Source: a phage
Length of the DNA stretch: 64,000 nucleotides
NCBI GenBank assembly: GCA_011884725.1
Contig: GCA_011884725.1_3919.1
Direction: 5' to 3' (one strand)
In this document: in pieces, positions 22,725-46,041 of the stretch
How the letters are laid out: each line of letters starts with the position of its first letter
How positions within the stretch are numbered: the stretch's first letter is position 1
Notes under the pieces: model-generated
The model's input: only the letters and a program-made list of their open reading frames with translations
What the model was told of the DNA's origin: nothing
Database searches by the model: none
Translations under genes and position numbers: made by a program

Positions 22725-23504
22725 ATGGGTATTGTAAAAGTTGTGAAAGGTAACTTACTAGCTGCCTTCAAAAACACAGACATTGAGTTAATTGCTCATG
22801 GTTGCAACTGCCGTAACCTCATGGGTGCTGGAATCGCTCAAAAAATTGCTAAGATTTTCCCAAAAGCTGAAGAAGCTGACCGGAAATTCCATAAAAAGTT
22901 TGGCTACAGCGCTCATGATATCGGATACCAGATGATTGGTGAGGTGTCACATGCTCGAACGGAGTATGGTTACATTTTTAACCTATATACACAGTTGGAT
23001 GTTGGGAAGTGTGCATCATACCGATACTTAGTGGAGTCACTAGAAAAACTCCGTAAATTTTGCTGGATGCACAACATTCGTAAGATTGGTTTACCCATGA
23101 TTGGTGCAGGTATCGGTGGTTTAGACGCACAAGCTGTGAAAAGCCTCATTAATAGCGTTATGTACAACGTTGATGTGTACCTATACGTCTATGATGAAGC
23201 AATGGCAACTGTAGTTACCCCTAAGTATGCCACCTCAGCACCACAATTCTATGATGGTGTCGTGCTAAGTGACGGTAAGTCTAACCATGTTACCCTCTAT
23301 CAGCTTGTTGATGGTAAGGTCGAGGCTAGTTACCCTCTGGTTAGTGAGATGGGTATGTGTAATAGTGAAATGTTCTCAATTGACCCGTTTGGTAGATACG
23401 AAGGGGTGTTCTTTGATAGCTACCCAGCAGCATACATCTACACAACAAATCAGGATGAAGTTCACTACTTGCTGTATTCTAAAAAGTTCAAATTCATAAA
23501 CTAA
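22725..23504 (+). CDS. macro-domain-like protein (possible ADP-ribose binding/processing)
   Basis: N-terminal VKGNLLAAFKNTDIELIAHGCNCRNLMGAGIAQKI resembles the macro-domain GD(I/L)...AIVNAAN...GGGV pattern; assignment is tentative. Confidence 0.4.
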   Translation: MGIVKVVKGNLLAAFKNTDIELIAHGCNCRNLMGAGIAQKIAKIFPKAEEADRKFHKKFGYSAHDIGYQMIGEVSHARTEYGYIFNLYTQLDVGKCASYRYLVESLEKLRKFCWMHNIRKIGLPMIGAGIGGLDAQAVKSLINSVMYNVDVYLYVYDEAMATVVTPKYATSAPQFYDGVVLSDGKSNHVTLYQLVDGKVEASYPLVSEMGMCNSEMFSIDPFGRYEGVFFDSYPAAYIYTTNQDEVHYLLYSKKFKFIN

Positions 23505-23537
23505 TTAGTGCTTCACAGCACCTATAATTAATCTAAG

Positions 23538-23584
23538 AAGGCCGCCTAACCCATTGAAAAATTTAAGGTAAGGCAGCCTTTTTC
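23538..23584 (+). terminator. terminator-like long hairpin AAGGCCGCCT...AGGCAGCCTT + TTT
   Basis: 10 bp arms with one mismatch, after the macro-domain gene. Confidence 0.4.
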
Positions 23585-23830
23585 ATTTTCAATTTGTGCA
23601 GGTAGCTGTATAGGTCTGCACAGGTGTCTCAAAAAATCTCATCGCCGGATAGAAAAATCATTTTCAAAACGTGCAGACTCCGCTCAGGTCGGGCAAGAAA
23701 AATCATTTTAGAATTGTGCAGGTAGGTTTTTATGGGGAGCCAGACCAACCCCTCTCCCCCTATTACTCCCCCTCTCCCCAAAAGTCAAGAGAAAAATTTG
23801 TAGCGGATTGAAAAATAATTCTTGATTTGT
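23580..23830 (+). repeat. four degenerate direct repeats (about 25 bp, ATTTT(C/A)AA...TGTGCAG core) plus CT-rich tract CCCCTCTCCCCCTATTACTCCCCCTCTCCCC
   Basis: Copies read at about 23583, 23653, 23697, 23807; only a probable antisense ORF here. Confidence 0.55.
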
Positions 23831-23932
23831 GTTCTGTTTTGTGGTAGTCGTGTGCGCACGTTTCATTACAGTTTTTCCAAAAATATTTTTAAAATTTTTC
23901 TTGACTCTTTGAACGGGGTTATCTAGTATTTG

Positions 23933-23992
23933 CATCAACGGGGAGGGAATGACCTTCCCCACTAAATAAAGTCCTAAACTGGAGATTCAAAA
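23933..23992 (+). repeat. type-A intergenic cassette: hairpin GGGGAGGGAATGACCTTCCCC plus conserved leader ...TAAAGTCCTAAACTGGAGATTCAAAA-ATG
   Basis: Direct read; hairpin 23940-23960; same cassette recurs at 25501-25552, 26352-26416, 27571-27640, 28712-28779 and degenerate at 29041-29109. Confidence 0.8.
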
Positions 23993-24376
23993 ATGGCATA
24001 CCGTGCACCTAAATTCATCAACAAAGACAACTTTCGCAACGCACTGGAGAAGTCACTTGATGAGAATTTTAAAGGTAACGTTATTGTTGTTCACTCATTT
24101 AATTTCAAGTATGATATCAATGGGAATAAAATCAACCATTACACGGCAACAATGCTAGATGGTACTCTTTCAAGTGAAAAAGCCATTTTACATGCACTTG
24201 CTGGACGTGGTAAAAACCTGATAAGATGCGATAAGAGACGTTATCAGGGTGGCGCATATGGTTACGATGATGCTGTTTATCATCTTGAAAATATGGGCTA
24301 TCAAGTAGAAAAAGCTGGAGTGTCTCAAATAATTGGTAGTGATGGTTACGTAACTATCTTCAAAATTAACAAATAA
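23993..24376 (+). CDS. hypothetical small protein (array gene 1)
   Basis: ORF track; conserved type-A cassette and GGAG-N9-ATG upstream. Confidence 0.55.
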   Translation: MAYRAPKFINKDNFRNALEKSLDENFKGNVIVVHSFNFKYDINGNKINHYTATMLDGTLSSEKAILHALAGRGKNLIRCDKRRYQGGAYGYDDAVYHLENMGYQVEKAGVSQIIGSDGYVTIFKINK

Positions 24377-24461
24377 AGTACTTTACAGGGGGCTTATAGT
24401 TCGATAAAGTAAGCCCCAGATAAAGAGCTTTACCACTAAATCCTAAATTGGAGATTCAAAA
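24377..24461 (+). repeat. type-B intergenic cassette: AAGTACTTTACA, hairpin GGGGCTTA...TAAGCCCC, then AGATAAAGAGCTTTACCACTAAATCCTAAA(C/T)TGGAGATTCAAAA-ATG
   Basis: Direct read; hairpin 24388-24417; recurs at 24757-24840, 25824-25910, 26619-26707 with variable loop sequence. Confidence 0.8.
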
Positions 24462-24752
24462 ATGGCTACTATCAAAAACGTTGTAATCCCTGTAAAAACT
24501 CGTGATGACGCTCGCATCATGGCGAAAAAGTTAGGCGGGAAAGTGGTTGACAACGGAAAACAATCTGCTGTAAGATGGGGTGTGAAGGCTGATAAACAGT
24601 TGAAGTTAAAAAATTCACCAATAAATCTTTTTACATGTGTAAACACTATCGGAAAGACAAATGTATACACGAAAAAGGCATATATTAGACGCGTAGCCTT
24701 AACATCTCCAACTCGTACAATGAGAAGTCATGCAAAGCTGAAAATTAACTGA
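24462..24752 (+). CDS. hypothetical small protein (array gene 2)
   Basis: ORF track; type-B cassette and GGAG leader upstream. Confidence 0.55.
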   Translation: MATIKNVVIPVKTRDDARIMAKKLGGKVVDNGKQSAVRWGVKADKQLKLKNSPINLFTCVNTIGKTNVYTKKAYIRRVALTSPTRTMRSHAKLKIN

Positions 24753-24840
24753 TAAAGTACTTTACAAGGGGCTTAAAAGTTGATACCTTAAGCCCCAGAT
24801 AAAGAGCTTTACCACTAAATCCTAAACTGGAGATTCAAAA

Positions 24841-25137
24841 ATGAAATTATCAAATAAAGTTCGTGAAAATCTAAGCAAATTACTCAACAAAATTGATTTC
24901 ATTGAAACATCAAGAAATAGCCATGATGTTATGGAATGGTTACACGGCAAAATAAAAGGTCGTCGTGTAGTGATTTGCTTATGGAATAGTTGCAGGGAGT
25001 ATAAAAAACCTGTATTGCAAGTCAATATCTATGATGATAATCTTAAAAGTCCTGTCAAATCTAAAAGCGATTTACTAGATTCTTATGAGATAACTGTAAA
25101 TGGCAAAGTGTCACGTAAAGAGGAAGCACCATGTTAA
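24841..25137 (+). CDS. hypothetical small protein (array gene 3)
   Basis: ORF track; type-B cassette upstream. Confidence 0.55.
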   Translation: MKLSNKVRENLSKLLNKIDFIETSRNSHDVMEWLHGKIKGRRVVICLWNSCREYKKPVLQVNIYDDNLKSPVKSKSDLLDSYEITVNGKVSRKEEAPC

Positions 25138-25463
25138 TGACTGGTATCACTGCAATCATTGCCATTTTCGCGCTCTATAAGGCATATAAAGCCTATAATC
25201 TAGCAAATAAGGCAATCACACAACAGGTTAGTAATAGCCTTGTAATGAGCTTTCTAGAGCGGTTGAGCGATGAACAATTAAAGCGGTTAGAAATGAGCTT
25301 CAGATTCAGGGCGAGAACTTATCAAATCAGCGACATTTTCAAAGATGATTTTCAATTAGTCGATGATTATAATTCTCTGATAAATGCTTTAAATATTAGT
25401 GACTTAAAAGACTATCATACTGTAATTGTTCAAGAGTTGAGCAAACGAAAACAAAACTGTTGA
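25131..25463 (+). CDS. hypothetical small membrane protein (array gene 4)
   Basis: ORF track; start overlaps upstream gene; hydrophobic N-terminus. Confidence 0.45.
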   Translation: MLMTGITAIIAIFALYKAYKAYNLANKAITQQVSNSLVMSFLERLSDEQLKRLEMSFRFRARTYQISDIFKDDFQLVDDYNSLINALNISDLKDYHTVIVQELSKRKQNC

Positions 25464-25488
25464 CACTGATTTTTAGATAGATTAAATT
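25460..25488 (+). promoter_or_regulatory. sigma70-like promoter TTGACA-17-TAAATT inside type-A cassette
   Basis: Hexamers read directly; an identical roughly 60 bp segment including this promoter recurs at 26324-26352. Confidence 0.5.
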
Positions 25489-25552
25489 ACACATCAACGG
25501 GGAGGGAATGACCTTCCCCACTAAGTAAAGTCCTTAAACTAGGAGATTCAAA

Positions 25553-25825
25553 ATGTATACTACTAACAACGGTCGCACTTTAAATGTCACTCTACGTCAC
25601 TATGTCGACGGTGTGATGCACTTTGAGGATTTACAGGCTGAGCAACATATCTTAAATTGGCAAGTCGCAGGACTCCAAAAAACTGCTACCGGATACGGCA
25701 AAAAGATTCCAACTAGCTGGAAAGTTCACTATGAAGGCCGTTTGCGCAGAATTTATCAGGATGTATGTAACAATAGCACATCAAGTTACATCATAGTAAA
25801 AGGTAAAAAACTGCATTTAGTATAA
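25553..25825 (+). CDS. hypothetical small protein (array gene 5)
   Basis: ORF track; type-A cassette with TTGACA-17-TAAATT promoter upstream. Confidence 0.55.
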   Translation: MYTTNNGRTLNVTLRHYVDGVMHFEDLQAEQHILNWQVAGLQKTATGYGKKIPTSWKVHYEGRLRRIYQDVCNNSTSSYIIVKGKKLHLV

Positions 25826-25910
25826 AGTACTTTACAGGGGGCTTATTAGTCTGTACAGTAAGCCCCAGATAAAGAGCTTTACCACTCAATCCTAAATTGG
25901 AGATTCTAAA

Positions 25911-26315
25911 ATGACTATTAATAATCGTGAGTTGTCAATCTTAAAAGCACGTTTAACCGTTAATCGAATCAATGTTATTACATCATCAGCACCGGATGAA
26001 ACATTGCACAACATTATCGGAAAGATTCAAAGCGTTATCTTAGACGTTGAAAACGTAAAAAACTCATTGGCTGACGTTGCAGCAGGTATCACGCTAGACG
26101 GTGCACAATATGAAATGGCCGACATGTTAGGCAAATCTAAGGTAATGAATAAAGAGTTAGACTTGAAAATGTTTAGATTTGCCGTGAAAGTGTGGCTATC
26201 TGTTGAGTATGATGCTAATTTTGCAATCGCTGATTTCTTTGCCACTTGGTTACAACGTAATTTGGCAAATCATGACTTTCGTGACATCTGCGACGCAATT
26301 TATGCAGAACTCTAA
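25911..26315 (+). CDS. hypothetical small protein (array gene 6)
   Basis: ORF track; type-B cassette upstream. Confidence 0.55.
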   Translation: MTINNRELSILKARLTVNRINVITSSAPDETLHNIIGKIQSVILDVENVKNSLADVAAGITLDGAQYEMADMLGKSKVMNKELDLKMFRFAVKVWLSVEYDANFAIADFFATWLQRNLANHDFRDICDAIYAEL

Positions 26316-26323
26316 AAATTTTA

Positions 26324-26352
26324 TTGACACTGATTTTTAGATAGATTAAATT
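26324..26352 (+). promoter_or_regulatory. sigma70-like promoter TTGACA-17-TAAATT (second copy)
   Basis: Same sequence as 25460-25488. Confidence 0.5.
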
Positions 26353-26416
26353 ACACATCAACGGGGAGGGAATGACCTTCCCCACTAAGTAAAGTCCTTA
26401 AACTAGGAGATTCAAA

Positions 26417-26614
26417 ATGGCTATTATCAACGGTTTAACCATTGAAACCACGCACATCAAAGACATTAAAGTTGGTGATGTAGTTCTTTCCCACGGCGTA
26501 GAAAAAACAGTCACTGCAAAGGGTATCAAAGATGATTCTTTCATGGGTAGAACTCTCTTCGGTGATTCTTATTGCTTAGGTTATCTTGCAGTTTTAAAAG
26601 TTGTCAAAAATTAA
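26417..26614 (+). CDS. hypothetical small protein (array gene 7)
   Basis: ORF track; type-A cassette with promoter upstream. Confidence 0.5.
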   Translation: MAIINGLTIETTHIKDIKVGDVVLSHGVEKTVTAKGIKDDSFMGRTLFGDSYCLGYLAVLKVVKN

Positions 26615-26707
26615 CTGATAAAGTACTTTACAAGGGGTTTATAGTTCGATAAAGTAAGCCCCAGATAAAGAGCTTTACCACTAAATCCTTAAACTAGGAG
26701 ATTCAAA

Positions 26708-27250
26708 ATGAAATGCTTTCACGGTACTACTCAAGAAAACTTTATCAACCTGATTAATAACGGTGATAAACCATCAGGTGTATGGAATTGTTCGGATATG
26801 GACGGCAATTTTTACGTGTACCCAGAAAATAAACTCTATGGTGATGATGAGGAAGAGATAGCATCGGAAGGTATCCAGCAAGCTCTAGGAAATGCCACTA
26901 TCACGGCAGCTTTTCAGATGAAAACTCAAAATATTGTTATCTTAGAACTTGACATTCCAGAGGATGAGCTAAATGATGATTATTCTTGTGATAACATGTC
27001 AAATATAGCAAGCTTTACAGAGTACTTTGATGTAAATTGGATTAAAAAGGTCTATACAACAGAGTTCAACGCTATGTATTCACCTTTTTGTCTCCCTTCA
27101 CTGGATAACCCAAATTTAAATTATCTTGATGAAACATTGGAGCTACTTGCTAAAAGTATCCAACAATCCGACAGTATTCAGGTTTTTTGTGACATCATGG
27201 ATACACTGACAGAAAACATTGTAGAGAGTGATTTAAAGGTCTTTTTCTAA
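26708..27250 (+). CDS. hypothetical acidic protein (array gene 8)
   Basis: ORF track; type-B cassette upstream. Confidence 0.55.
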   Translation: MKCFHGTTQENFINLINNGDKPSGVWNCSDMDGNFYVYPENKLYGDDEEEIASEGIQQALGNATITAAFQMKTQNIVILELDIPEDELNDDYSCDNMSNIASFTEYFDVNWIKKVYTTEFNAMYSPFCLPSLDNPNLNYLDETLELLAKSIQQSDSIQVFCDIMDTLTENIVESDLKVFF

Positions 27251-27316
27251 AAACCTATACATTCACCTTATAAACACTGATTAACCCCTTACAGGGGCTT
27301 TTAGAGGGCTTAAATC

Positions 27317-27550
27317 ATGCTTACAACCATTTATCTCATCCTTTCTATCTGTAGCGGTCATTCATGTGACTTTAAAGGGCTTGAAGAGTTTACAGGAAGT
27401 AAAGAAAATGCTATTCAGGTTTGCCAGATAGCAAGACAAGACTATCCCGCCAGTGATGATATACAATGCTACTTTAAGACAGAAGATGAAGAAGGAATCT
27501 ATTTCGACAGTGTTGATGGTCAATATGAAATTATCATTGAAAAAGACTAG
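27317..27550 (+). CDS. hypothetical small protein (array gene 9)
   Basis: ORF track; short hairpin 27285-27297 upstream. Confidence 0.45.
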   Translation: MLTTIYLILSICSGHSCDFKGLEEFTGSKENAIQVCQIARQDYPASDDIQCYFKTEDEEGIYFDSVDGQYEIIIEKD

Positions 27551-27640
27551 ACAAGCCTGATAAAAGTCTGTAAATTACACATCAACGGGGAGGGAATGAC
27601 CTTCCCCACTAAATAAAGTCCTAAACTGGAGATTCTAAAA

Positions 27641-27982
27641 ATGGCTTATGTAACCGTAATTACTGATAAAGAGAATTCATCTTGGTCAACTCAGGTTAGT
27701 GACAAGATGTCACCTATGCAGTGCCTAAAATACTTTGAGCAGTGGAATAAAGGCGAGGATGTAAGCCCATTTCAAGTGATGCAGGTTATCCATGTAGATA
27801 ACGAAGGGAATAAAACGGTTTTAAATAGTGAGTACTACGCAAGCCGTTTTGAAACTAGAAGTAAAACAATGAAGCTTTTACGTGAATCCGGTTATGCCCA
27901 TATCGCCGCGCTAATCTGGGATGACCTGCTAAAAAGTCAGCGTATCAGCTATGTAAAACCTGAAAAAATATTCATCAGTTAA
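27641..27982 (+). CDS. hypothetical small protein (array gene 10)
   Basis: ORF track; type-A cassette upstream. Confidence 0.55.
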   Translation: MAYVTVITDKENSSWSTQVSDKMSPMQCLKYFEQWNKGEDVSPFQVMQVIHVDNEGNKTVLNSEYYASRFETRSKTMKLLRESGYAHIAALIWDDLLKSQRISYVKPEKIFIS

Positions 27983-28014
27983 TCAATAACTTATAAAAAA
28001 CTTTTAAAAAAGTG

Positions 28015-28043
28015 TTGACAACACCCCTTGACAATAGTACATT
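28015..28043 (+). promoter_or_regulatory. sigma70-like promoter TTGACA-17-TACATT with A-rich upstream tract; second TTGACA 13 bp downstream
   Basis: Direct read: AAAAAAGTGTTGACAACACCCCTTGACAATAGTACATT. Confidence 0.4.
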
Positions 28044-28183
28044 TGTTCGAGGGGGTTTATCTAAAAGGGATTCACTTAAAAGATTCTTTATAGATAAACT
28101 TAAAAAATTGCTTGCAATCATCTTCCAAAAACTTTATAGTTTATCTCAAGCAATAATGCTTTCCTAAACTGGAGATTCAAAAA

Positions 28184-28714
28184 ATGAACAAGTTCAAAGC
28201 TATCAACTACATTCGCTCAAATAGTGTCATGTCTAAGCCTGTTAAGGATACCTACGAATTCCGTTGCAATGGTGAACACTTTGCTACCATCACCAAATCA
28301 AACAACGGGGCTTATTATATCCATCGTCGTAATGTTTCTACGGTTGTAGTTTCTAACTTTATGCAAGCTGTAGCGGAACTCCTCCCGCTCTTCTTAGAAA
28401 AGTATGCCGTACAGTGTGAAAGTGTTCGTGAATGCACTAAAACAGTGTTAAACGGTTATCGTATGGCTTACGAGCGCTCTTTAAAGAATCTCAATAAATA
28501 CTACAAAGCACCGGAAGGCACTTCATCCACAGCCTACGGGGTAGGGGGCTTCAATGTCAGCCTTTACGAAGTGGAAGAAATCGAGCTTTATGACCATCGC
28601 CCAAATGGTTACGCTAAGACACTGGGAGAGGGGTTAATGCTGAATATCAAGAACTTAGAAAAAACTTTAAGAGAAATTGAAAAAGATATTGACGAGACAA
28701 TCAAAAGTCTGTAA
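28184..28714 (+). CDS. hypothetical protein (array gene 11)
   Basis: ORF track; tandem TTGACA promoters at 28015-28043 and the conserved leader upstream. Confidence 0.55.
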   Translation: MNKFKAINYIRSNSVMSKPVKDTYEFRCNGEHFATITKSNNGAYYIHRRNVSTVVVSNFMQAVAELLPLFLEKYAVQCESVRECTKTVLNGYRMAYERSLKNLNKYYKAPEGTSSTAYGVGGFNVSLYEVEEIELYDHRPNGYAKTLGEGLMLNIKNLEKTLREIEKDIDETIKSL

Positions 28715-28779
28715 ATTATCAATCAACGGGGAGGGAATAACCTTCCCCACTAAGTAAAGTCCTAAACTGGAGATTCAAA

Positions 28780-29043
28780 ATGGAACACGTAGAACTGACC
28801 ACACTCTTACAAATCGCAACCGACAAGGAAGACGTAGCATTATTTCACCGTATAGAGAGTGATTTGTTCAATGGTGAAATCATCAAAGAATCTTACGAAG
28901 TTGTCGGATTCAAAGATGGTAAAGCATTTGGCTTTTTTGACCTCGACAAAAGCAAAGCGGTTACAAAGTACGATGTTCTATCTTGTGAGATTCTTACAAA
29001 ATACAACGAAAAAAGGCTTGCAACCTACGCCAACATGCAGTAA
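28780..29043 (+). CDS. hypothetical small protein (array gene 12)
   Basis: ORF track; type-A cassette upstream. Confidence 0.55.
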   Translation: MEHVELTTLLQIATDKEDVALFHRIESDLFNGEIIKESYEVVGFKDGKAFGFFDLDKSKAVTKYDVLSCEILTKYNEKRLATYANMQ

Positions 29044-29109
29044 ATTACTAATCAACGGGGAGGGATGACCTCCCTACTAAACAAAGTCCTAAACTGGAGA
29101 ATCTAAATT

Positions 29110-29358
29110 ATGTCAACTATCCGCGTAACTGTTAATGCTTATGGCTGCCACCAACTTGATGCAAAATTCGATATCGGTGGAACAGATAACACCTTTGACC
29201 TTATCAAAATGCTGATTCAGCAGGTGATACCAGATTATAACCCTACTGATGACTTCTGGAAAGATGCCGTAAAAGAAGCCATAAACGAGGAATCTCACTA
29301 CCATTATTGGGGTGACTTGATTATCTCTCTGTACTACAGCAAACAAGGTTACAACTAA
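29110..29358 (+). CDS. hypothetical small protein (array gene 13)
   Basis: ORF track; degenerate type-A cassette upstream; followed by terminators 29369-29422. Confidence 0.5.
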   Translation: MSTIRVTVNAYGCHQLDAKFDIGGTDNTFDLIKMLIQQVIPDYNPTDDFWKDAVKEAINEESHYHYWGDLIISLYYSKQGYN

Positions 29359-29368
29359 TCGACGCAGC

Positions 29369-29422
29369 GGGGCTAAATAGCCCCAGATACCTGAAAAGCT
29401 CCTTCTCATAGGGGCTTTTTTA
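29369..29422 (+). terminator. tandem terminator hairpins (GGGGCT-AAAT-AGCCCC; AGCTCC...GGGGCT + TTTTTT) ending the rightward small-gene array
   Basis: Direct read. Confidence 0.55.
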
Positions 29423-30992
29423 CGTCTATAAAGAGACTCTATACAGTCCCTTTCCTTTCCTTCCTAGAATCTATCCCACTAATTCGATAGAGACTATCTC
29501 ATACCTTAAAAAGCAATAACTCTATAGTCTACTCTATAACCTCTTATCAAATCAACTTAAATATAAGCCCATAACCCGAAAGGGAAGGGCAACCACTAAA
29601 ACGCTCTATAAAGCTCTATAACAGCCTTATCAATCTAACTTAAGCAATCATATTAACCTACTCTAAAAAGCCCTTTATAGAGCTTCCCAGAGCCTTAAAA
29701 GAATCTTATAAGGGTGTAAGCTTTATTATCTCGTTAGCTATCTTGTGAACTACTAAAAAGGGCTTGTTAGTGTCTTAAAAGTATGTTATAGGGGCTATAA
29801 AGTTACTTCAAAGTTACGTAAAAGGGGCTATAAAGTTACGTAAATGCTAGCCCCCTTAACATTTTCTTAACAATTTCTTAACAATCCCTACATAGTTATG
29901 CTTTTAAGGCACTTGTTAGAGACTTGTTAGCCCCTTGTTAAATCTCTGTTAAGACCACGTAAAAGCCTTGTAAGAGTCTTTAGCATAGCCTTTAAAGCCT
30001 CTGTAAAGCCCTATAAAGAGGTGTCTGTATAGTTGGGGTGTAATTACTAGGAAGAGACTTAAAAGAGCTTACAAGGAGCTATAGAGAGCTTTTAAGAGGG
30101 CTATTTAGAGAATCACTAAGAGGGAAAGGGAACGATAAGAAAAGAGATAGTGACCATGTTAATAGCTTGTTAAAAAGATTAAACACTTGTTAGGAACTTG
30201 TTAATTATCCCTACAAAATAACTCTTTAAAATTAACTTGTTAGCTCTTGTTAGTCATCTGTTAAGATTCTGTAAAGCCTATGTATCAACTGTTAAGAAAC
30301 TGTTACACCCTTGTTAGTTCTGTTAAGAATCTGTTAAGACCTCTGAAGAGATGTTAAGAAGATGTGAGAACTGTTAAGGAATTGTTAATGATATTTTAAA
30401 ATTTTGCAAAGTACTTGTAAGGGAGTTGTTAAGGGCTACCAAGCAGATATACATCTTCTACAGATATTTTTCAGTCCCTTCAAAGACCCTAAAAAATGAC
30501 TTGATAGTCCTATTTTATAAAAATTTTAAAATTCTGAATAATTACCTATACAGTCTTTTAAAAATACAGGTAATAACAGGCTTATAAGATACCTTGTTAG
30601 TACCGTGTTAGACCTTGTGAGATAAGGTCTGTAAAGATATTCCTGTTAAGTTTGTTAAAACAGTCTATATAGAGGCTTAGTATTTCCTAGTGAACACCTA
30701 TAGAGGGTAACATAGCTAACCTAGAGATTAAGAGGTGTATAGGAGCTTCTAAGAGGGTGTAGAGAGATGGTTAAGGTGATTGTATAGGTTGTTAAGAAGG
30801 CTTGTTAGAAGAGTGTTTAGAAGGGCTATACAGAGGGGCTATTAAGACCACTAGATAGATACTAAGATACTATATAGTACTATATAACTATATAGAGAGT
30901 AAGATTAAGAAGGTTGTTAAGAAGGGTAGATATTTTATTCACATATGATGGTGACCCAGCGGTTGGGACAACCGATAAATTTTATAAAAATT
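29423..30992. repeat. ORF-free region densely packed with short degenerate repeats (CTATA(A/G)AG family in the left part; (C/T)TGTTA(A/G)G family in the right part)
   Basis: No ORF of 60 aa or more on any frame; about 30 copies of TTGTTAG/CTGTTAAG-like octamers and about 12 CTATAAAG-like copies counted by eye; bounded by convergent terminators. Confidence 0.75.
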
Positions 30993-31022
30993 AAAAAGCC
31001 CCCGATTAAGGAGGCTCTTAAG
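30993..31022 (-). terminator. minus-strand terminator-like hairpin GAGCCTCC-TTAATC-GGGGGCTT + TTTTT
   Basis: Reverse complement read; downstream of the last leftward gene. Confidence 0.45.
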
Positions 31023-31027
31023 ATATT

Positions 31028-31576
31028 TTAAATCAGTGTTTCCAGAACTGTTTTCAATGATGACTTGGTTGTCTGATAAAAATGAGTAAATCCATTGTTA
31101 TTATCGAATACCTGCATCATGATATCATCTCCCTTGATTGGGTACACTCGGATATCATAGTGAAAACCATTAAAGACACAAGAACCACTACAGAATGCTC
31201 TAAAGTCATCTACTGAGATATACTCTTCATGACCTGTGATTTTTATACAAACGCCTTTACTCGGTCTCTTAGGGTTGATATCTTCCATCACAGACATACT
31301 CTGTCCACCAAGAGATACCATAGTGACCACTTTACGGTTCTTCTGTTTAAAGTACATCTTAACTTTCTGCAAAGTGTCTTCATAGAATGGATAAGACCTT
31401 TCTACAAAGATTCCTTCAAGTGGCTCTTTACCATTTTCAACTTCTCGGTTATGCCGTACTGCAAAGATAATTTGTTCGAACCAGTCAAGATTTTCTTCGG
31501 AGAGTGCTTCCCGAACATCCTTCCAGTCAAGTACTAAGTAGTTACCTTCAACTTCTTTTAAGTTATCTTTTTCCAT
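31028..31576 (-). CDS. hypothetical protein
   Basis: ORF track frame; start set to internal ATG 31576 (GGTG 8 nt upstream), which avoids a 62 bp overlap; track start 31651 is also possible. Confidence 0.4.
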   Translation of the reverse strand: MEKDNLKEVEGNYLVLDWKDVREALSEENLDWFEQIIFAVRHNREVENGKEPLEGIFVERSYPFYEDTLQKVKMYFKQKNRKVVTMVSLGGQSMSVMEDINPKRPSKGVCIKITGHEEYISVDDFRAFCSGSCVFNGFHYDIRVYPIKGDDIMMQVFDNNNGFTHFYQTTKSSLKTVLETLI

Positions 31577-40938: not shown

Positions 40939-41015
40939 CTCTGTTTAGCTCAGCTTGGTAGAGCGTTCCGTTTGGGGCGGTAAGGCCGGAGGTTCAAGTC
41001 CTCCAACAGAGACCA
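40939..41015 (+). tRNA. tRNA-Pro (anticodon TGG)
   Basis: Acceptor CTCTGTT/AACAGAG, C1:G72, T-arm GGAGG-TTCAAGT-CCTCC, anticodon loop TTTGGGG, A73, encoded CCA. Confidence 0.75.
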
Positions 41016-41022
41016 AATTAAT

Positions 41023-41100
41023 GTTCCAGTAGACAAAATGGTAAAGTCACCACTCTTTCAAAGTGGATATCTGAGGGTTCAAATCCCTTCTGGAACGCCA
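41023..41100 (+). tRNA. tRNA-Glu (anticodon TTC)
   Basis: Acceptor GTTCCAG/CTGGAAC, anticodon stem CCACT/AGTGG loop CTTTCAA, T-loop TTCAAAT, G73, CCA. Confidence 0.75.
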
Positions 41101-41191
41101 GTTTTGACAGAAGACCAATTACAGCAAACTTAATCTTATTCATCTGAAGGTAAATCGGACAAAGAAGAGATTTGGTCTGGTCATTAAGAAT

Positions 41192-41268
41192 TGCGGGTAT
41201 AGAGAAAGGGCGTCTCACATGTCTCATTAGCATGGTATCGGCAGGTTCGACTCCTGCACCCGCCTCCA
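41192..41268 (+). tRNA. tRNA with CAT anticodon (Met or Ile2 type), atypical 5' region
   Basis: T-arm GCAGG-TTCGACT-CCTGC, 3' acceptor ACCCGCC, anticodon stem CATGT/GCATG loop CTCATTA; 5' acceptor has a 1:72 mismatch or an extra nt before the D-stem. Confidence 0.5.
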
Positions 41269-41352
41269 AATTTACAGAAGACCGTTTACAGCAAAATTGA
41301 ATGAAATTTTTAGCGGAAAAATTGAAAGATACGGTCTGGTAATACTAAACAT

Positions 41353-41426
41353 GGTTAGGAAGCACATAAGGTATGTGCGGTCGCCTGTTAAGCGAATGGC
41401 ACAGGGTTCGAATCCCTGACTAACCG
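41353..41426 (+). tRNA. tRNA-Asn (anticodon GTT)
   Basis: Acceptor GGTTAGG/ACTAACC, anticodon loop CTGTTAA, T-arm CAGGG-TTCGAAT-CCCTG, G73, no encoded CCA. Confidence 0.7.
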
Positions 41427-41438
41427 CAAAATTGAAAT

Positions 41439-41526
41439 GTGTCGTTATCCCGTAGATGGTAGCGGTGGGGACTGTAAATCCCTTGTCATTGAGACTCGGT
41501 AGGTTCGACTCCTACACGGCACACCA
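41439..41526 (+). tRNA. tRNA-Tyr (anticodon GTA), long variable arm
   Basis: 88 nt; acceptor GTGTCGT/ACGGCAC, anticodon loop CTGTAAA, T-arm GTAGG-TTCGACT-CCTAC, A73, CCA. Confidence 0.75.
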
Positions 41527-41531
41527 ATAAA

Positions 41532-41608
41532 GGCTATGTAGTTTAACTGGAGAAAATACTCCCCTGTCACGGGAGATGATGTGAGTTCAAGTCTCATCGT
41601 AGCCGCCA
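41532..41608 (+). tRNA. tRNA-Asp (anticodon GTC)
   Basis: Acceptor GGCTATG/CGTAGCC, anticodon stem CTCCC/GGGAG loop CTGTCAC, T-loop TTCAAGT, G73, CCA. Confidence 0.8.
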
Positions 41609-41837
41609 AATTATAATAAGTATTTCAAAATGATGTTTTGAGAGGGCTATTTAGCCCCTCCCTTAAAGAGTTCTTACGAGTATTCTTTAAAGGAGCAGAA
41701 GACCAAATACAGCAAGAATGTATGATATTTTCAAGCCAATCCAATTTTGAAAAAATTTAAAACTTGGTCTGGCTCAACAAATTTACAGAAGACCGTTTAC
41801 AGCAAAACTTAAACAATCTATTTCTCGGTAAAGAAAA

Positions 41838-41892
41838 GGCGAAGGTTCGATTCCTTCACTCGGCAGATGTCGAGTTGGTGTAATGGTAGCAC
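41838..41892 (+). pseudogene. tRNA remnant: 3'-half-like T-arm segment followed by 5'-half-like acceptor/D-arm segment, no intact cloverleaf
   Basis: GAAGG-TTCGATT-CCTTC-ACTCGGCA then GTCGAGTTGGTGTAATGGTAGCAC; no complementary acceptor partner found in correct order. Confidence 0.4.
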
Positions 41893-42065
41893 TTAAGATG
41901 ATAAACAACGGTCTGGTAATTATCTTTGTAGATAAGTTATTAAGCTTACCTGTGAGTATGCGACCACAAAGGGTGAAAGGGTAAATTCTAGATTTAAACC
42001 CAAAAAGGCACATCGCTACAGACCTTAAGCAAGTCTGGGTAGCTTATCTACAAAGATAATTTAAT

Positions 42066-42141
42066 GGAAGTGTAGCAGAATGGTGATGCGGCAGACTTTT
42101 AATCTGACAGGCGATGGGTTCGAATCCCTCCACTTCTACCA
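42066..42141 (+). tRNA. tRNA-Lys (anticodon TTT)
   Basis: Acceptor GGAAGTG/CACTTCT, anticodon loop CTTTTAA, T-loop TTCGAAT, A73, CCA; weak T-stem shared with the CTT Lys tRNA. Confidence 0.65.
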
Positions 42142-42145
42142 ATAT

Positions 42146-42222
42146 GGTTCAGTCGCAGATAAGGTAATGCAAGGGTCTCATAAGCCCTATGAATGTGGGT
42201 TCGATTCCCATCTGAACCTCCA
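42146..42222 (+). tRNA. tRNA-Met (anticodon CAT)
   Basis: Acceptor GGTTCAG/CTGAACC, anticodon stem AGGGT/GCCCT loop CTCATAA, T-arm GTGGG-TTCGATT-CCCAT, CCA. Confidence 0.75.
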
Positions 42223-42223
42223 A

Positions 42224-42299
42224 GCTGGTATAGTTAAGAAGGTTATAACACTCCCCTGATAAGGGAACATCGGTGGTTCGATTCCACCTACCAGTACCA
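42224..42299 (+). tRNA. tRNA-Ile (anticodon GAT)
   Basis: Acceptor GCTGGTA/TACCAGT, anticodon loop CTGATAA, T-arm GGTGG-TTCGATT-CCACC, A73, CCA. Confidence 0.7.
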
Positions 42300-42314
42300 A
42301 TTTCAATAAAGTTG

Positions 42315-42343
42315 TTGACATTGAGATGTGACTACTTTATAGT
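42315..42343 (+). promoter_or_regulatory. strong sigma70-like promoter TTGACA-17-TATAGT inside the tRNA cluster
   Basis: Direct read; followed by about 200 bp without ORF or tRNA before tRNA-Arg. Confidence 0.55.
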
Positions 42344-42545
42344 AACCTTAGTTTTCGTTGCGTAGCGTCTATTTTGCAAATTTAAAATAAATGCAAACGA
42401 CAATGTTTTTCTGGCAGTAGCTTGATAGGCTAAACACCAGTGAGGTCTTCCAATCCCTCATCAAAGAATTTGGCGTACTCGCCCACGGTATGATTAATAA
42501 GGTGGGCATCTTTAAGGGCTTTCTAAGAGAGTCTTTAAAGATAAT

Positions 42546-42622
42546 GCACCCTTAGTTCAATTGGATAGAGCAACGGTCTTCTAAATCGTTAGTTACAGGT
42601 TCGAATCCTGTAGGGTGTACCA
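42546..42622 (+). tRNA. tRNA-Arg (anticodon TCT)
   Basis: Acceptor GCACCCT/AGGGTGT, D-arm GTTCAATTGGATAGAGC, anticodon stem ACGGT/ATCGT loop CTTCTAA, T-loop TTCGAAT, A73, CCA. Confidence 0.8.
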
Positions 42623-42764
42623 AATAGTTAGCAGATTACTTAGACGGCCTTAGCGGGTCTTCCTGTAGGGAGGTGGTCTGTATCTCATGTTTTCCAGAAC
42701 ATGTAAATAATCTGAGAAGAAGCTTGACAGTGTTGAGATAACAGGGTAAGCTTCGAATTATAAT

Positions 42765-42847
42765 ATGGGACGATGTTAAGACTCTAAGGCATGAGCAACG
42801 GCCTCCAAAACCGTTTCAAAGGGGTTCAACTCCTCCGTCCCATGCCA
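42765..42847 (+). tRNA. tRNA-Trp (anticodon CCA) with enlarged D region
   Basis: Perfect acceptor ATGGGAC/GTCCCAT, anticodon stem ACGGC/ACCGT loop CTCCAAA, T-loop TTCAACT, G73, CCA; about 7 extra nt between acceptor and anticodon stem. Confidence 0.55.
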
Positions 42848-42860
42848 AAGTCTTATTAGG

Positions 42861-42948
42861 GGTAGGTAGCGGCTAATGGTAGCCAAACTGTCTTGAAAAC
42901 AGTTGCCACTGTAGAGATACGGTGAGGGTTCGACTCCTTTACTTACCG
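42861..42948 (+). tRNA. tRNA-Ser (anticodon TGA), long variable arm
   Basis: 88 nt; acceptor GGTAGGT/ACTTACC, anticodon stem ACTGT/ACAGT loop CTTGAAA, T-loop TTCGACT, G73. Confidence 0.7.
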
Positions 42949-43104
42949 CCTAATAAGATTTACTCCGTCCATGCTTGTTCGCATTGTCGGTTTATCCCTC
43001 GTGTATTGTCGTACACTGTCAAAGCACCTAGTAGGTGTCACGGAGAAGAGATAATATCAAGCTCTCCAAAGGTTCTAGTCACCGGATTAAACAAGACTAT
43101 GCAA

Positions 43105-43124
43105 AGACCTATTTAGGTCTTTTT
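43105..43124 (+). terminator. terminator-like hairpin AGACCT-ATTT-AGGTCT + TTTT inside tRNA cluster
   Basis: Direct read. Confidence 0.45.
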
Positions 43125-43204
43125 AGAGGGCTTCTAAGGTTATTAGTCGCTTGTTGTGGAACCTTGTTGCTTAGGTTCTTAGAAGTTCTCTAAAAAGATT
43201 TAAT

Positions 43205-43282
43205 GGGAGATTGACGGTAATTGGTAAACCTACCATCCTTAGAAGTTGGTGTTTGAGGGTTCGAATCCCTTGTCTCCTACCA
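43205..43282 (+). tRNA. tRNA with Leu-type anticodon TAG but short variable arm
   Basis: Acceptor GGGAGAT/GTCTCCT (two G-U pairs), D-loop AATTGGTAAA, anticodon loop CTTAGAA, T-arm GAGGG-TTCGAAT-CCCTT, A73, CCA. Confidence 0.5.
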
Positions 43283-43289
43283 AATTAAT

Positions 43290-43365
43290 GCAGGTGTAGC
43301 AAAATGGTTATGCGGCTGACTCTTAATCAGTAAGACGATGGGTTCAATTCCCTCCACCTGTACCA
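43290..43365 (+). tRNA. tRNA-Lys (anticodon CTT)
   Basis: Acceptor GCAGGTG/CACCTGT, anticodon stem GCTGA/TCAGT loop CTCTTAA, T-loop TTCAATT, A73, CCA. Confidence 0.65.
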
Positions 43366-43371
43366 AACATT

Positions 43372-43447
43372 GGGGATGTAGTTTACATGGTTAAAACATA
43401 AGTTTTGCAAACTTAAGTACAGGGTTCAATTCCCTGCTTCTCCACCA
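43372..43447 (+). tRNA. tRNA-Ala (anticodon TGC)
   Basis: G3:U70 pair in acceptor, anticodon stem TAAGT/ACTTA loop TTTGCAA, T-arm CAGGG-TTCAATT-CCCTG, A73, CCA. Confidence 0.7.
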
Positions 43448-43453
43448 ATTAGT

Positions 43454-43528
43454 GCATCCATAGTTTAAACGGGAAAATTACAGTCTTCCAAACTGAGGTT
43501 GAGGGTTCGATTCCCTCTGGATGCTCCA
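43454..43528 (+). tRNA. tRNA-Gly (anticodon TCC)
   Basis: Perfect acceptor GCATCCA/TGGATGC, anticodon loop CTTCCAA, T-arm GAGGG-TTCGATT-CCCTC, U73, CCA. Confidence 0.8.
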
Positions 43529-43534
43529 AACAAT

Positions 43535-43611
43535 GCTGCTTTCGTATAATTGGCTATTACACATCCCTTGTAAGGATGGAAATGCAGGTTCGAGTCCTGT
43601 GAGCAGCACCA
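43535..43611 (+). tRNA. tRNA-Thr (anticodon TGT)
   Basis: Acceptor GCTGCTT/GAGCAGC, anticodon stem CATCC/GGATG loop CTTGTAA, T-loop TTCGAGT, A73, CCA. Confidence 0.8.
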
Positions 43612-43707
43612 ATTCAGAGGTCAAGTGAAAGACCGCTTTGAGTCAACTGAAGACCGTAACAAATACCACGGAGTTGAGTTAGCGGCACAACTTCAGACCT
43701 CTTTCAT

Positions 43708-43782
43708 ACTCGCTTAGTTTATATGGTAAAACATCACCCTTACAAGATGAAGAAAAAGGTTCAAGTCCTTTAGTGAGTACCA
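43708..43782 (+). tRNA. tRNA-Val (anticodon TAC)
   Basis: Acceptor ACTCGCT/AGTGAGT, anticodon loop CTTACAA, T-arm AAAGG-TTCAAGT-CCTTT, A73, CCA. Confidence 0.65.
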
Positions 43783-43783
43783 T

Positions 43784-43861
43784 GTTCCAGTATCCCAATT
43801 GGCAGAGGATGCAAGCTCAAACCTTGTATTAGTGACGGTTCGAATCCGTCTTGGAACACCA
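43784..43861 (+). tRNA. tRNA with Leu-type anticodon CAA but short variable arm
   Basis: Acceptor GTTCCAG/TTGGAAC, D-loop AATTGGCAGAGGA, anticodon stem GCAAG/CTTGT loop CTCAAAC, T-arm GACGG-TTCGAAT-CCGTC, A73, CCA. Confidence 0.55.
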
Positions 43862-43866
43862 ATTTT

Positions 43867-43942
43867 GCAGGATTAGTTCAAATGGAAAGAGCAACAGTCT
43901 ACGAAGCTGTTAATAGGGGTTCGAATCCCTTATCCTGCGCCA
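43867..43942 (+). tRNA. tRNA-Arg (anticodon ACG)
   Basis: Perfect acceptor GCAGGAT/ATCCTGC, anticodon stem ACAGT/GCTGT loop CTACGAA, T-loop TTCGAAT, G73, CCA. Confidence 0.8.
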
Positions 43943-43959
43943 GATAAAAAGGTGATACT

Positions 43960-44202
43960 ATGCAAACATTAACAGTAGTTGAACATGAAAACTGTGAGAG
44001 TATTGAGTTTGTCAGGGTCATTGGTGTTGAACACCACATTTTCTTAAAAGTGGGATACTTATGTGACCCCGCTAGAGTAGAAAGATTTATACGTGATTGT
44101 TTTGGTGGTAGACATCTGAAGAGTGTTATTTTTGAGACAGTTTTACCAGAAGGTTTAGAAACGAATAATAACATTTACCTCCTTACGAGGATTAGACAAT
44201 GA
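43960..44202 (+). CDS. hypothetical protein (inside tRNA cluster)
   Basis: ORF track; AAAGGTGA upstream. Confidence 0.5.
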   Translation: MQTLTVVEHENCESIEFVRVIGVEHHIFLKVGYLCDPARVERFIRDCFGGRHLKSVIFETVLPEGLETNNNIYLLTRIRQ

Positions 44203-44756
44203 GATACTTAAAGTATGCTTCATGGATTTTCTTAGCTTTGTTAGAGCCATTTGCAGCAATCTTAGCAGTTATCTTAGCACCTTTTGTAGTTCCATTCTAC
44301 AGTGAGAAGAAAGGACACTTACCTTTCGGGTTCAGATGGATGGAGACATATGACAACCCAATTGATGGTGATGAAGGTCACGTTAAAAGATGGGCTAATA
44401 TTAGATGGATTGGTAAACTAGGTGTCTACATGCAAAGAGTCGGATGGCTCTGGAGAAACAAAGCTTATAACTTCTCTTACCATGTATTAGGAAGAGATGT
44501 AAGAGATGTTACTAAGTGGAAAGGTAATATCAACGTAAGTTCTAACCCTGAAGATAATCAGACTGGTTATCTCCTAATGTGGAACAGTAATGCTTGGGGA
44601 TTATTCGCTTTTATCCCATCAATTAAAGTCTTCGGTAAACAGTTTTACTGGAGAATTTATGTTGGATGGAAACTTAAAAGTGTTGTCCCAGAAGAAAGAG
44701 CATTCTCAAGGGAAAGAGTTATGTTGGCATTCTTTATTCATCCACTGAGAAAGTAA
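44199..44756 (+). CDS. hypothetical membrane protein (inside tRNA cluster)
   Basis: ORF track; N-terminal hydrophobic segment WIFLALLEPFAAILAVILAPFVVPF; Trp-rich. Confidence 0.5.
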   Translation: MRYLKYASWIFLALLEPFAAILAVILAPFVVPFYSEKKGHLPFGFRWMETYDNPIDGDEGHVKRWANIRWIGKLGVYMQRVGWLWRNKAYNFSYHVLGRDVRDVTKWKGNINVSSNPEDNQTGYLLMWNSNAWGLFAFIPSIKVFGKQFYWRIYVGWKLKSVVPEERAFSRERVMLAFFIHPLRK

Positions 44757-44764
44757 AGATTTAA

Positions 44765-44840
44765 AGGGGATTAGTTTACAAGGTTAAAACCTCGGTCTTT
44801 GAAATCGAAGAAGTTGGTTCAATTCCAACATCCCCCGCCA
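44765..44840 (+). tRNA. tRNA-Gln (anticodon TTG)
   Basis: Anticodon stem TCGGT/ATCGA loop CTTTGAA, T-arm GTTGG-TTCAATT-CCAAC, unpaired 1:72 and G73, CCA. Confidence 0.7.
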
Positions 44841-44842
44841 AT

Positions 44843-44921
44843 GCTCCATTACTCCAATTGGCAGAGAGGCCAGACTTAAAATCTGTGTTATGTATCGGTT
44901 CGAATCCGATATGGAGTACCA
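44843..44921 (+). tRNA. tRNA with Leu-type anticodon TAA but short variable arm
   Basis: Acceptor GCTCCAT/ATGGAGT, D-loop AATTGGCAGAGAG (paralogous to the CAA tRNA), anticodon loop CTTAAAA, T-arm ATCGG-TTCGAAT-CCGAT, A73, CCA. Confidence 0.55.
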
Positions 44922-44926
44922 AATTT

Positions 44927-45002
44927 AGCGGTATAGCATAACTGGCAATGCAGCAGTCTCTGAAGCTGTCCTATTAAGGTTCAAATCCTTATGCCGCTGC
45001 CA
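44927..45002 (+). tRNA. tRNA-Gln (anticodon CTG)
   Basis: Acceptor AGCGGTA/TGCCGCT, anticodon stem GCAGT/GCTGT loop CTCTGAA, T-arm TAAGG-TTCAAAT-CCTTA, G73, CCA. Confidence 0.7.
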
Positions 45003-45033
45003 CTTCTAAGGATTCTTACGAGAGTCCTTAAAT

Positions 45034-45109: not shown

Positions 45110-45114
45110 ATTTA

Positions 45115-45191: not shown

Positions 45192-45207
45192 ATTTCAAAG
45201 GTGCTTA

Positions 45208-45942: not shown

Positions 45943-45944
45943 AT

Positions 45945-46037: not shown

Positions 46038-46041
46038 ATTT

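Follow-up and report, generated by a model that had tools for sequence, protein, structure and literature searches.

Repeated putative promoter and stem-loop cassettes as probable recombination sites in the small-gene array of a Felixounavirus

The array and the closest described systems

Promoter-early stem-loops (PeSLs) were described in the T4-type phages RB49/phi1, T4/PST and KVP40/nt-1 (Arbiol et al. 2010, PMC2839356; Comeau et al. 2014, PMC4122927). Here we analyze a locus of similar layout, positions 23505-29422 of a 64,000-nucleotide stretch of phage DNA (GenBank assembly GCA_011884725.1, contig GCA_011884725.1_3919.1), the whole of which is called the window below. The locus, a small-gene array, belongs to a Felixounavirus (Felix O1/wV8-like), and 10 of the 13 genes in it are preceded by one of two kinds of cassette (six of type A, four of type B) that carry a putative promoter, a hairpin and a common leader. 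An earlier reading made from the letters alone (the sequence-only reading) had likened the array to PeSLs. That proposal holds, in that the layout agrees, the cassettes are far more alike than the coding sequences, and related genomes differ in gene content at the cassettes. We put at roughly 0.75 the probability that the array is a PeSL-like hyperplastic locus of early genes whose cassettes double as homology for recombination.

All of the sequence-level features of a PeSL are found in the cassettes, namely multiple copies, a promoter signature, a stem-loop, a Shine-Dalgarno (SD) sequence with ATG, and a hyperplastic location. Both kinds of element combine an AT-rich stretch, a sigma-70 promoter with a 17-nt spacer, a stem-loop of a G-run and a C-run with G-T pairs, and an SD sequence followed by a start codon, and both are concentrated in a hyperplastic ORFan region. 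The stem-loop may sit between −35 and −10, which is the commonest PeSL layout (PMC2839356) and that of type B. Insertions, deletions and replacements are bounded by cassettes, and degraded or half cassettes lie near them, as the half-PeSLs do (PMC4122927). The type-B signature TTTACA-N17-TAnnnT, moreover, resembles the T4/PST PeSL consensus TTTACW-N17-TAYWAT (PMC4122927). The host lineage is different: PeSLs come from T4-type myoviruses (Straboviridae), whereas the window belongs to a Felixounavirus, one of the Ounavirinae, with genomes of ~88 kb and terminal repeats. The limit to T4-type phages is the taxonomic boundary of the original description and not a mechanistic feature. In IMG/VR, the type-B motif was confined to Ounavirinae contigs of 54-94 kb. 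Further differences are that no sequence relationship to the T4-type PeSLs is apparent between the two sets, which were not aligned to each other; that here two discrete, uniform types share one leader in a single 5.5-kb array on one strand; and that the type-A hairpin lies downstream of the predicted transcription start, while the type-B hairpin is long and consists of three parts. Finally, the promoter and terminator activities of PeSLs and their mini-circles are experimental findings (PMC2839356), whereas the promoters and hairpins of the present cassettes are predicted from sequence.

Three other systems invite comparison. The inter-cistronic RNase III sites of the T7 early region have no promoters, are not near-identical repeats and are unlinked to gene-content variation. 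They resemble the present hairpins in being interrupted stem-loops without a U-tract between consecutive early genes transcribed by host polymerase, and hairpin-protected 3' ends are possible in both. The type-B cassettes, by contrast, are putative promoters, near-identical and tied to gene-content variation, and cleavage at their hairpin is hypothetical. Stem-loops of the ompA type at the 5' end protect mRNA against RNase E. The type-A hairpin is comparable in that, by prediction, 1-3 nt precede it in the transcript of its own cassette, a place from which it could protect against 5'-end-dependent decay; it differs in that the start is a predicted one and that the hairpin would also be found inside read-through transcripts. 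With integron attC sites the array shares unrelated small genes, imperfect inverted repeats, and the gain and loss of whole units, but here the units have their own promoter signatures, sequence as well as structure is conserved, the junctions vary in position, and these phages are not known to have a recombinase.

The repeats themselves are on record. The Felix O1 genome paper (Whichard et al. 2010, PMC3185647) lists direct repeats of 57 bp and 39 bp, and the wV8 record (EU877232) annotates DR_1 to DR_9, neither source offering an interpretation. These repeats are the cassettes themselves, type B at 57 bp and the promoter part of type A at 39 bp. The wV8 paper mentions neither repeats nor promoters, and our literature searches, some of which used very broad queries, returned no earlier PeSL-like description and no transcript maps for Felix O1-like phages. 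The repeats were already recorded; a regulatory or recombinational reading of them was not found in the literature searched.

Two cassette types with promoter-like signals and hairpins

Thirteen plus-strand open reading frames (ORFs), g1 to g13, encode proteins of 127, 96, 98, 110, 90, 134, 65, 180, 77, 113, 176, 87 and 82 aa. The sequence-only reading had given 13 ORFs of 53-180 aa; the count and the upper limit stand, whereas the lower limit is 65 aa, the 53-aa ORF being situated upstream of the macro-domain gene. The 13 ORFs are mutually unrelated by clustering and none has a Pfam domain; g1-g10, the ten that were scanned against PHROGs, are assigned to ten different families, all of unknown function. 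The description of the array ORFs as unrelated and devoid of recognisable domains is thus borne out.

The type-A core, AACGGGGAGGGAATGACCTTCCCCACTAA, is present in five copies with at most one mismatch (0 expected), with a sixth, degenerate copy at 29054, and the type-B core, CCCCAGATAAAGAGCTTTACCACT, in four exact copies (0 expected). The leader TCCTAAACTGGAGATTCAAAA has eight copies with two or fewer mismatches, to which three of the variant TCCTTAAACTAGGAGATTCAAA are added; the claim of a near-identical common leader is therefore supported by 11 copies in two variants. All of the cassette copies are on the plus strand within 23900-29110, and none is found elsewhere in the 64 kb. The two types have in common only the last ~34 nt (74% identity), that is, the leader, which ends in GGAG-N8-ATG. 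Within the window, pairwise identity is 88.8% over 62 nt for type A and 89.3% over 85 nt for type B, as compared with 51.8% (maximum 57.4%) for equal-length coding stretches of the 13 genes; this contrast, ~89% against ~52%, is the one that had been predicted between conserved cassettes and unrelated coding sequences. From g1 to g13 the order is A, B, B, none, A, B, A, B, none, A, leader only, A and A. The statement that two alternating types precede ten genes is thus correct as to the types and the number, and alternation is restricted to the middle of the array. For nearly every gene the cassette runs from the stop codon to the start codon and fills the whole intergenic space.

The six type-A cassettes are laid out alike. 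The first (23874-23992), with the first promoter of the array, has TTGACT-17-TAGTAT at 23901-23929 preceded by an AT-rich stretch (23874-23900), a hairpin at 23940-23960 and the leader at 23972-23992. The second (25460-25552) has TTGACA-17-TAAATT at 25460-25488, a hairpin at 25499-25519 and leader variant 2 (25534-25552). The third (26316-26416), which also carries variant 2, has the same boxes at 26324-26352, an AT-rich run 5' of them at 26318-26323, and a hairpin at 26363-26383. In the fourth (27548-27640), TAGACA-17-TAAATT (27548-27576) is followed by a hairpin (27587-27607) and the leader, where a wV8-like tract ends. The fifth (28689-28779) has its −35 box and the stop codon inside the 3' end of g11, with TTGACG-17-TAAATT at 28689-28717, a hairpin at 28728-28748 and the leader. 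The degenerate sixth (29018-29109) retains TTGCAA-17-TAAATT (29018-29046), a 7-bp hairpin (29057-29075) and the leader.

In the type-B cassettes the hairpin begins upstream of the −35 box. The first (24374-24461) has TTTACA-17-TAAAGT at 24382-24410, straddling a three-part hairpin at 24374-24432; the second (24750-24840) has TTTACA at 24761 and, after 17 nt, TACCTT at 24784-24789, with its hairpin at 24750-24814; the third (25823-25910) has TTTACA-17-TACAGT at 25831-25859 and a hairpin at 25823-25881. All three end in the leader. The fourth (26612-26707) combines TTTACA-17-TAAAGT (26627-26655), a hairpin with a U.G pair (26616-26680) and leader variant 2.

Three genes lack a full cassette. The start of g4 overlaps the end of g3, as described below. 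The g8-g9 spacer (27251-27316) holds a CCCCU/AGGGG hairpin followed by CUUUU, which is annotated as a terminator in the wV8 record (EU877232), and its own SD sequence; its fold is weak (z 0.0). The 201-nt spacer before g11 (27983-28183) has the shared leader only (28162-28183), together with an AT-rich 5-bp hairpin and two promoter-like pairs, TTGACA-17-TACATT at 28015-28043 and TTGCAA-17-TATAGT at 28112-28140. Between the last gene and the terminator, a hairpin at 29369-29384 (RNA GGGGCUAAAUAGCCCC, then AGAUA; DNA GGGGCTAAATAGCCCC, then AGATA) corresponds to part of the type-B apex; it has neither leader nor promoter boxes and looks like a remnant cassette.

The sequence-only reading had seen a promoter in some type-A copies. 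This was too narrow, as a −35/−10 pair is present in six of six type-A and four of four type-B copies of the window. We compared the homologous locus from 14 GenBank genomes of three genera, to which 13 IMG/VR stretches were later added, and anchored extraction on 15 genomes yielded 91 type-A and 76 type-B copies (63 of the latter distinct). In the 91 type-A copies, the −35 hexamer is T98 T85 G96 a78 c68 a60 (percent), followed by a variable 17-nt spacer and a −10 hexamer of T100 A100 A86 A80 t65 T100; the −35 box remains recognisable even where the last codons of the upstream gene contain it, as at the end of g11. Downstream of −10 come 7 nt ending in a nearly invariant ATC, then AAC, and then the hairpin. 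The usual distance from −10 to the transcription start is ~7 nt. In the 63 distinct type-B copies, five positions of TTTACA are invariant and the sixth is conserved in at least 90%; exactly 17 nt beyond, within an otherwise variable loop, the T, the A and the sixth-position T of a −10 hexamer are invariant. Because these two elements are placed around the hairpin, the type-B promoter would straddle it. We infer from these fixed positions that the cassettes carry sigma-70 promoters. In Felix O1, reverse-transcription PCR showed that homologues of array genes peak 5 or 25 min after infection.

GGAG-N7-10-ATG was found in 166 of 166 leaders scored, with N8 in 110. The leader has two forms, CCT-AAACT-GGAG (105 copies) and variant 2, CCTT-AAACT-AGGAG (61 copies), which differ by two insertions 6 nt apart (UCC..GGA as opposed to UCCU..AGGA). 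The insertions are perfectly linked, since not one of the 166 leaders has only one of them. Together they would lengthen by one U-A pair a small helix of which the SD sequence is part, and the linkage could reflect either structural covariation or simple co-conversion.

The type-A hairpin is a stem of ~8 bp (~−18 kcal/mol) just 3' of the predicted start. Its position is constant among the genomes; its stem and loop take many forms, GNRA tetraloops, for instance, in Michonne and SUSP1. The type-B hairpin consists of three stems of 6, 5 and 9 bp with internal loops (−24 to −27 kcal/mol), and none of 200 shuffled sequences folded as well. In the type-B alignment, 97.1% of the cells are paired and four pairs have changed on both sides (26 cells), for example C-G to U-A, and G-C to U-A in REP8, with U.G intermediates; none of 500 shuffles matched this pairing, and controls in which the pairing was slid gave 56% or less. 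The frequent G.U pairs fit the plus strand only, which is the mRNA strand. What follows the hairpins is ACTAA... or AGATAAAG..., with no U-tract, and a terminator scan detected none of them. A search of the whole window against Rfam at the gathering threshold gave tRNAs only, and a permissive search of the locus gave no match to the cassettes. True intrinsic terminators are found solely at the two ends of the array. The left one (23535-23583), 3' of the macro-domain gene, is a −19.3 kcal/mol hairpin followed by UUUUUC, and the right one (29393-29420) is an 11-bp stem with a U-run after it. The Felix O1 genome paper (PMC3185647) names their counterparts t13 and t23, respectively.

Variation among relatives and its possible causes

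Gene content was compared across 15 complete genomes and the 13 IMG/VR stretches, which are partly redundant, making about two dozen loci. Every difference in gene content is a whole gene-plus-cassette unit, and nearly all differences leave a single cassette of normal length (62-103 nt). A fixed set of 13 genes without variation at the cassettes was not seen. Thus g1 is missing in Felix O1 and Alf5, and g2 in these two and in REP8; Felix O1 and Si3 lack g7-g9, g7 also being missing in one IMG/VR locus (L048); g12 is missing in LinBro, VpaE1, Alf5, Felix O1 and Si3, the last of which lacks g11 as well. Additional genes (n10, n13, n15, n17, n19, n20, n37, n38 and n43) occur in wV8, Michonne, SUSP1 and several uncultivated genomes. 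An unrelated gene, n19, takes the place of g7 in Michonne and SUSP1; a type-B cassette with one or more extra genes precedes g10 in wV8, Michonne and SUSP1; and g2 is duplicated in tandem in Michonne. Altogether, ~24 gene families make up a pan-array whose members are present or absent among the relatives.

Some of these changes left their joints within the cassettes. Felix O1 and Si3 have a hybrid cassette: after the 3' end of g6 comes the promoter half of the g7 cassette, which leads directly into the leader and start of g10. The type-A cassette that precedes g10 in the window is found in wV8 before an extra gene, and g10 there has type B. The window itself is a mosaic, wV8-like, then E9-like, then wV8-like again, and the three junctions that were mapped are all inside cassettes. 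The g1-g9 region is 96-100% identical to wV8, and this tract ends at the ATG of g10; a second tract, 99.8% identical to E9, begins at ~28163 in the g11 leader and ends at ~29082 in the linker 3' of the hairpin preceding g13; and from 29102 through the terminator the sequence is again ~99.7% wV8-like, E9 having a very divergent g13, which places the last junction at 29082-29102. Within the E9-like tract, g11 has 99.8% nucleotide identity to E9 and ~77% to 11 other genomes (76% at the amino acid level to wV8).

The cassettes of one genome also appear to have exchanged sequence with one another. Leader variant 2 is absent from the two outgroup genera, is found in both cassette types, and is polymorphic among Felixounavirus genomes in 10 slots, and we take it to be a derived form that has spread to at least that number of slots. 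Particular hairpin variants are common to several slots of a single genome (REP8 four, LinBro three, Bas63 three, Michonne four). Non-orthologous type-A copies are closer within genomes than between them, a difference reached in 14 of 2000 permutations.

We propose the following scheme. Host sigma-70 RNA polymerase would fire at each cassette early in infection. Type-A transcripts would start 1-3 nt before the hairpin, giving a 5'-terminal stem-loop that may cap them, whereas the 20-bp type-B hairpin would be present only in read-through RNA from upstream, as an attenuator or a 3'-end stabiliser; in read-through RNA, hairpins of either type may attenuate or stabilise. The shared leader would serve both types as a strong ribosome site, GGAG-N8-ATG. 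Because the cassettes are ~90% identical and the genes between them unrelated, they would act as portable homology within and between co-infecting genomes, that is, as short matches available to the recombination machinery during replication and co-infection. The outcomes observed are that gene-plus-cassette units are precisely lost, gained or duplicated, that alleles are swapped at gene boundaries, and that gene conversion takes place between cassettes. The same mechanism has been proposed for the PeSLs of T4-type phages. That exchange, loss and gain occur at gene-plus-cassette units is shown by the comparison of genomes.

Several observations weigh against this proposal. Promoter-like matches are frequent in AT-rich DNA (37 found, 24.7 expected), and for this reason the case for promoters rests on positional conservation. 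The hairpins, lacking a U-tract, are not canonical terminators, and the concerted-evolution signal is modest. Orthologous cassettes (84-96% identity between genomes) are no more conserved than the genes. Simple homologous exchange leaves the tandem or "empty" cassettes unexplained: in E9 (locus L004, 2471-2571), two type-B cassettes stand in tandem without an intervening gene, the first of them cut within its leader, and Michonne (locus L010, 3320-3500), beside its g2 duplication, has a complete leader and ATG joined straight to the next type-B cassette. Selection alone would enrich surviving phages for whole-gene insertions and deletions, wherever the breaks fell. Lastly, gene order is essentially collinear in all of the genomes and true re-ordering is rare: n10 precedes g10 in wV8 and follows it in one uncultivated genome (L060), n19 occupies three different positions relative to g7, and x9/n17, which are only distant homologues of each other, lie at the array start in two Salmonella phages and mid-array in Michonne. 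The modular shuffling put forward by the sequence-only reading is therefore upheld as regards cassette-bounded unit changes, hybrids and mosaic junctions and finds little support as regards order; the term would here mean mainly gain, loss, duplication and allele exchange, with few positional shifts.

One could envision that the cassettes are expression signals only, kept alike by purifying selection, and that changes in gene content are random illegitimate insertions and deletions filtered by selection. Within the cassettes, conservation is indeed highest at the promoter and SD positions, the rate of divergence of orthologous cassettes is about that of the genes, and a few events in E9 and Michonne left tandem or half cassettes. 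We nevertheless regard this as unlikely, as it does not account for the genome-specific hairpin variants common to several slots, the linked double insertion in at least 10 slots of both types, the hybrid cassettes, or the location of all three mosaic junctions in cassette stretches of ~20 nt. An alternative with a better, though still tentative, claim is that the hairpins are RNA punctuation of an operon, type B being an RNase III-type site and type A an end protector, and that conservation stems from mRNA processing and stability. The three-stem type-B fold, the compensatory changes in both its lower and upper helices, the mRNA-strand bias of the G.U pairs, the missing U-tracts, and the placement of the type-A hairpin near a predicted 5' end, a stabilising position, all fit this explanation. 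On the other hand, the lower-stem sequence doubles as stop codon and −35 box, which is another cause of conservation; only one lower-stem pair covaries, in five sequences; and the cassettes match no Rfam family. RNA punctuation is, in any case, compatible with recombination between cassettes and does not exclude it.

Two further scenarios seem improbable to different degrees. The near-palindromic units flanking the type-B hairpin, TAAAGTACTTTA and TAAAGAGCTTTA, might be operators for a dimeric regulator that silences an early array. TAAAGTACTTTA is a perfect 12-bp palindrome over the −35 box, the second, similar unit lies just past the predicted start, and the array is expressed in the early or middle period. 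We think this quite improbable, because the variation is compensatory between the units and not within them; the change of G-C to U-A in five sequences breaks each palindrome and fits RNA pairing, and no candidate regulator was identified. The other scenario, which we consider remote, is that the array is integron-like, with imperfect hairpins as sites at which a site-specific recombinase moves gene cassettes. Each unrelated small ORF is followed by an imperfect inverted repeat, whole units are gained and lost, and the PeSL authors left site-specific recombination open. This model ranks low because each cassette has its own promoter, whereas integron cassettes are promoterless, and because the junctions fall in leader, linker or hairpin with no single crossover point. 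In addition, sequence is conserved and not structure alone, the cassette motif is restricted to Ounavirinae genomes, and Felix O1 is described as virulent, its genome paper (PMC3185647) reporting no recombinase; no scan for one was made across the window.

Recombination between cassettes might have a further consequence, or the leader and hairpins a further role. The leader and hairpins may exert RNA-level control over the whole early array, recombination between cassettes may yield mobile mini-circles, or both; we hold this combined proposal to be rather doubtful. Under RNA-level control, host RNase III, or else an unrecognised phage nuclease of the RegB kind, would cut read-through RNA at the GGAG of the leader or at the type-B hairpin, and cutting would switch off or stabilise all of the array genes together; the perfect linkage of the two leader insertions would then mark a selected small helix that sequesters the SD sequence. 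In the mini-circle version, released circles of gene plus cassette would carry ORFans between co-infecting Ounavirinae, as reported for PeSLs.

Genes of the array, its surroundings and significance

The genes g1 (23993-24376; phrog_4495) and g2 (24462-24752) are followed by g3 (24841-25137) and g4 (25131-25463), which has no cassette and overlaps the end of g3 by 7 nt (25131-25137). These two occur together in all 15 genomes of the first map, and one IMG/VR locus (L036) has g4 without g3; they look like a translationally coupled two-gene module. Next come g5 (25553-25825), g6 (25911-26315), g7 (26417-26614), g8 (26708-27250), g9 (27317-27550) and g10 (27641-27982). The array ends with g11 (28184-28714), g12 (28780-29043) and g13 (29110-29358), the last being 99.6% identical to wV8 at the nucleotide level. 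The grouping of g5 and g7 into one family was rejected as a clustering artefact of alternative upstream ATGs inside the cassette, as PHROG assignments and sequences separate them. Two divergent alleles of g11, with 76% protein identity, exist at 28184-28714; the window has the E9 allele, and the pattern looks like allelic replacement.

The predicted fold of g8 is ADP-ribosyltransferase-like, which makes it a candidate for that fold and provides one weak lead toward an anti-defence role of the array ORFs. Homologues of g8 were found only in Ounavirinae; in them, an N-terminal FHGT motif is nearly invariant, and Y36/Y38 and E80 are invariant. In a knockout screen, the Bas63 homologue g107 affected fitness in a host-dependent manner; those who made the screen, in whose text it is the sole array gene discussed, noted that it slightly resembles the NAD-binding domain of RNA 2'-phosphotransferase.

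The left neighbour of the array is, as had been stated, a macro-domain gene (22725-23504, plus strand; Pfam Macro, E 7e-07). Its protein has 42% amino acid identity to the wV8 homologue, while the DNA from 23658 on is 96-100% wV8-like; the allele was apparently replaced, and among the relatives compared it is common only to Si3. The 488-nt non-coding stretch preceding the first cassette contains (noted at 23583-23781) three copies of AAAAATCATTTTnnAAnnGTGCAG(GTAG), an inverted repeat TGTGCAG...CTGCACA and an unusual C-rich tract, CCAACCCCTCTCCCCCTATTACTCCCCCTCTCCCC. To the right of the array, 1.6 kb without ORFs (29420-31030) is dense in the short motifs CTTGTTAA/G, CTGTTAAGA and CTATAAAG on both strands, those at 29901-29972 being spaced in 11-nt phase. 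In a related record, this non-coding stretch comes before the annotated terminal repeat; in phage Pr103Blw, a "short direct terminal repeat" is annotated ~460 nt past the array. The region may be a genome-end or packaging region with arrays of protein-binding sites. A plus-strand cluster of 24 tRNA genes (Rfam) at 40939-46114 is typical for Felix O1-like phages. By megablast, 23505-29422 matched 259 phage records; nearly all belong to Felixounavirus, and the matches to Mooglevirus and Suspvirus are weaker. GU169904 ("Staphylococcus phage SA1") and MG065664 ("Campylobacter phage A132") hold a Felix O1-type array at ~87% identity, and these two records are probably chimeric or mislabelled.

The array suggests that the PeSL strategy, by which each accessory gene is equipped with a standard unit of promoter, hairpin and leader that also provides homology for recombination, extends beyond T4-type phages. 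Its cassette sequences look unrelated to the T4-type PeSLs, in sets that were not aligned, and an independent origin is indicated. The Felix O1 group is widely used in the typing and biocontrol of Salmonella and E. coli. For many Felixounavirus genomes the analysis provides an annotation map, with ten unannotated putative promoters in 5.5 kb and ~24 interchangeable ORFan families. For engineering, the cassettes would mark natural, tolerated insertion sites with ready-made expression signals. The array, with g8 near the macro-domain gene, is also a place to search for host-takeover or counter-defence functions.

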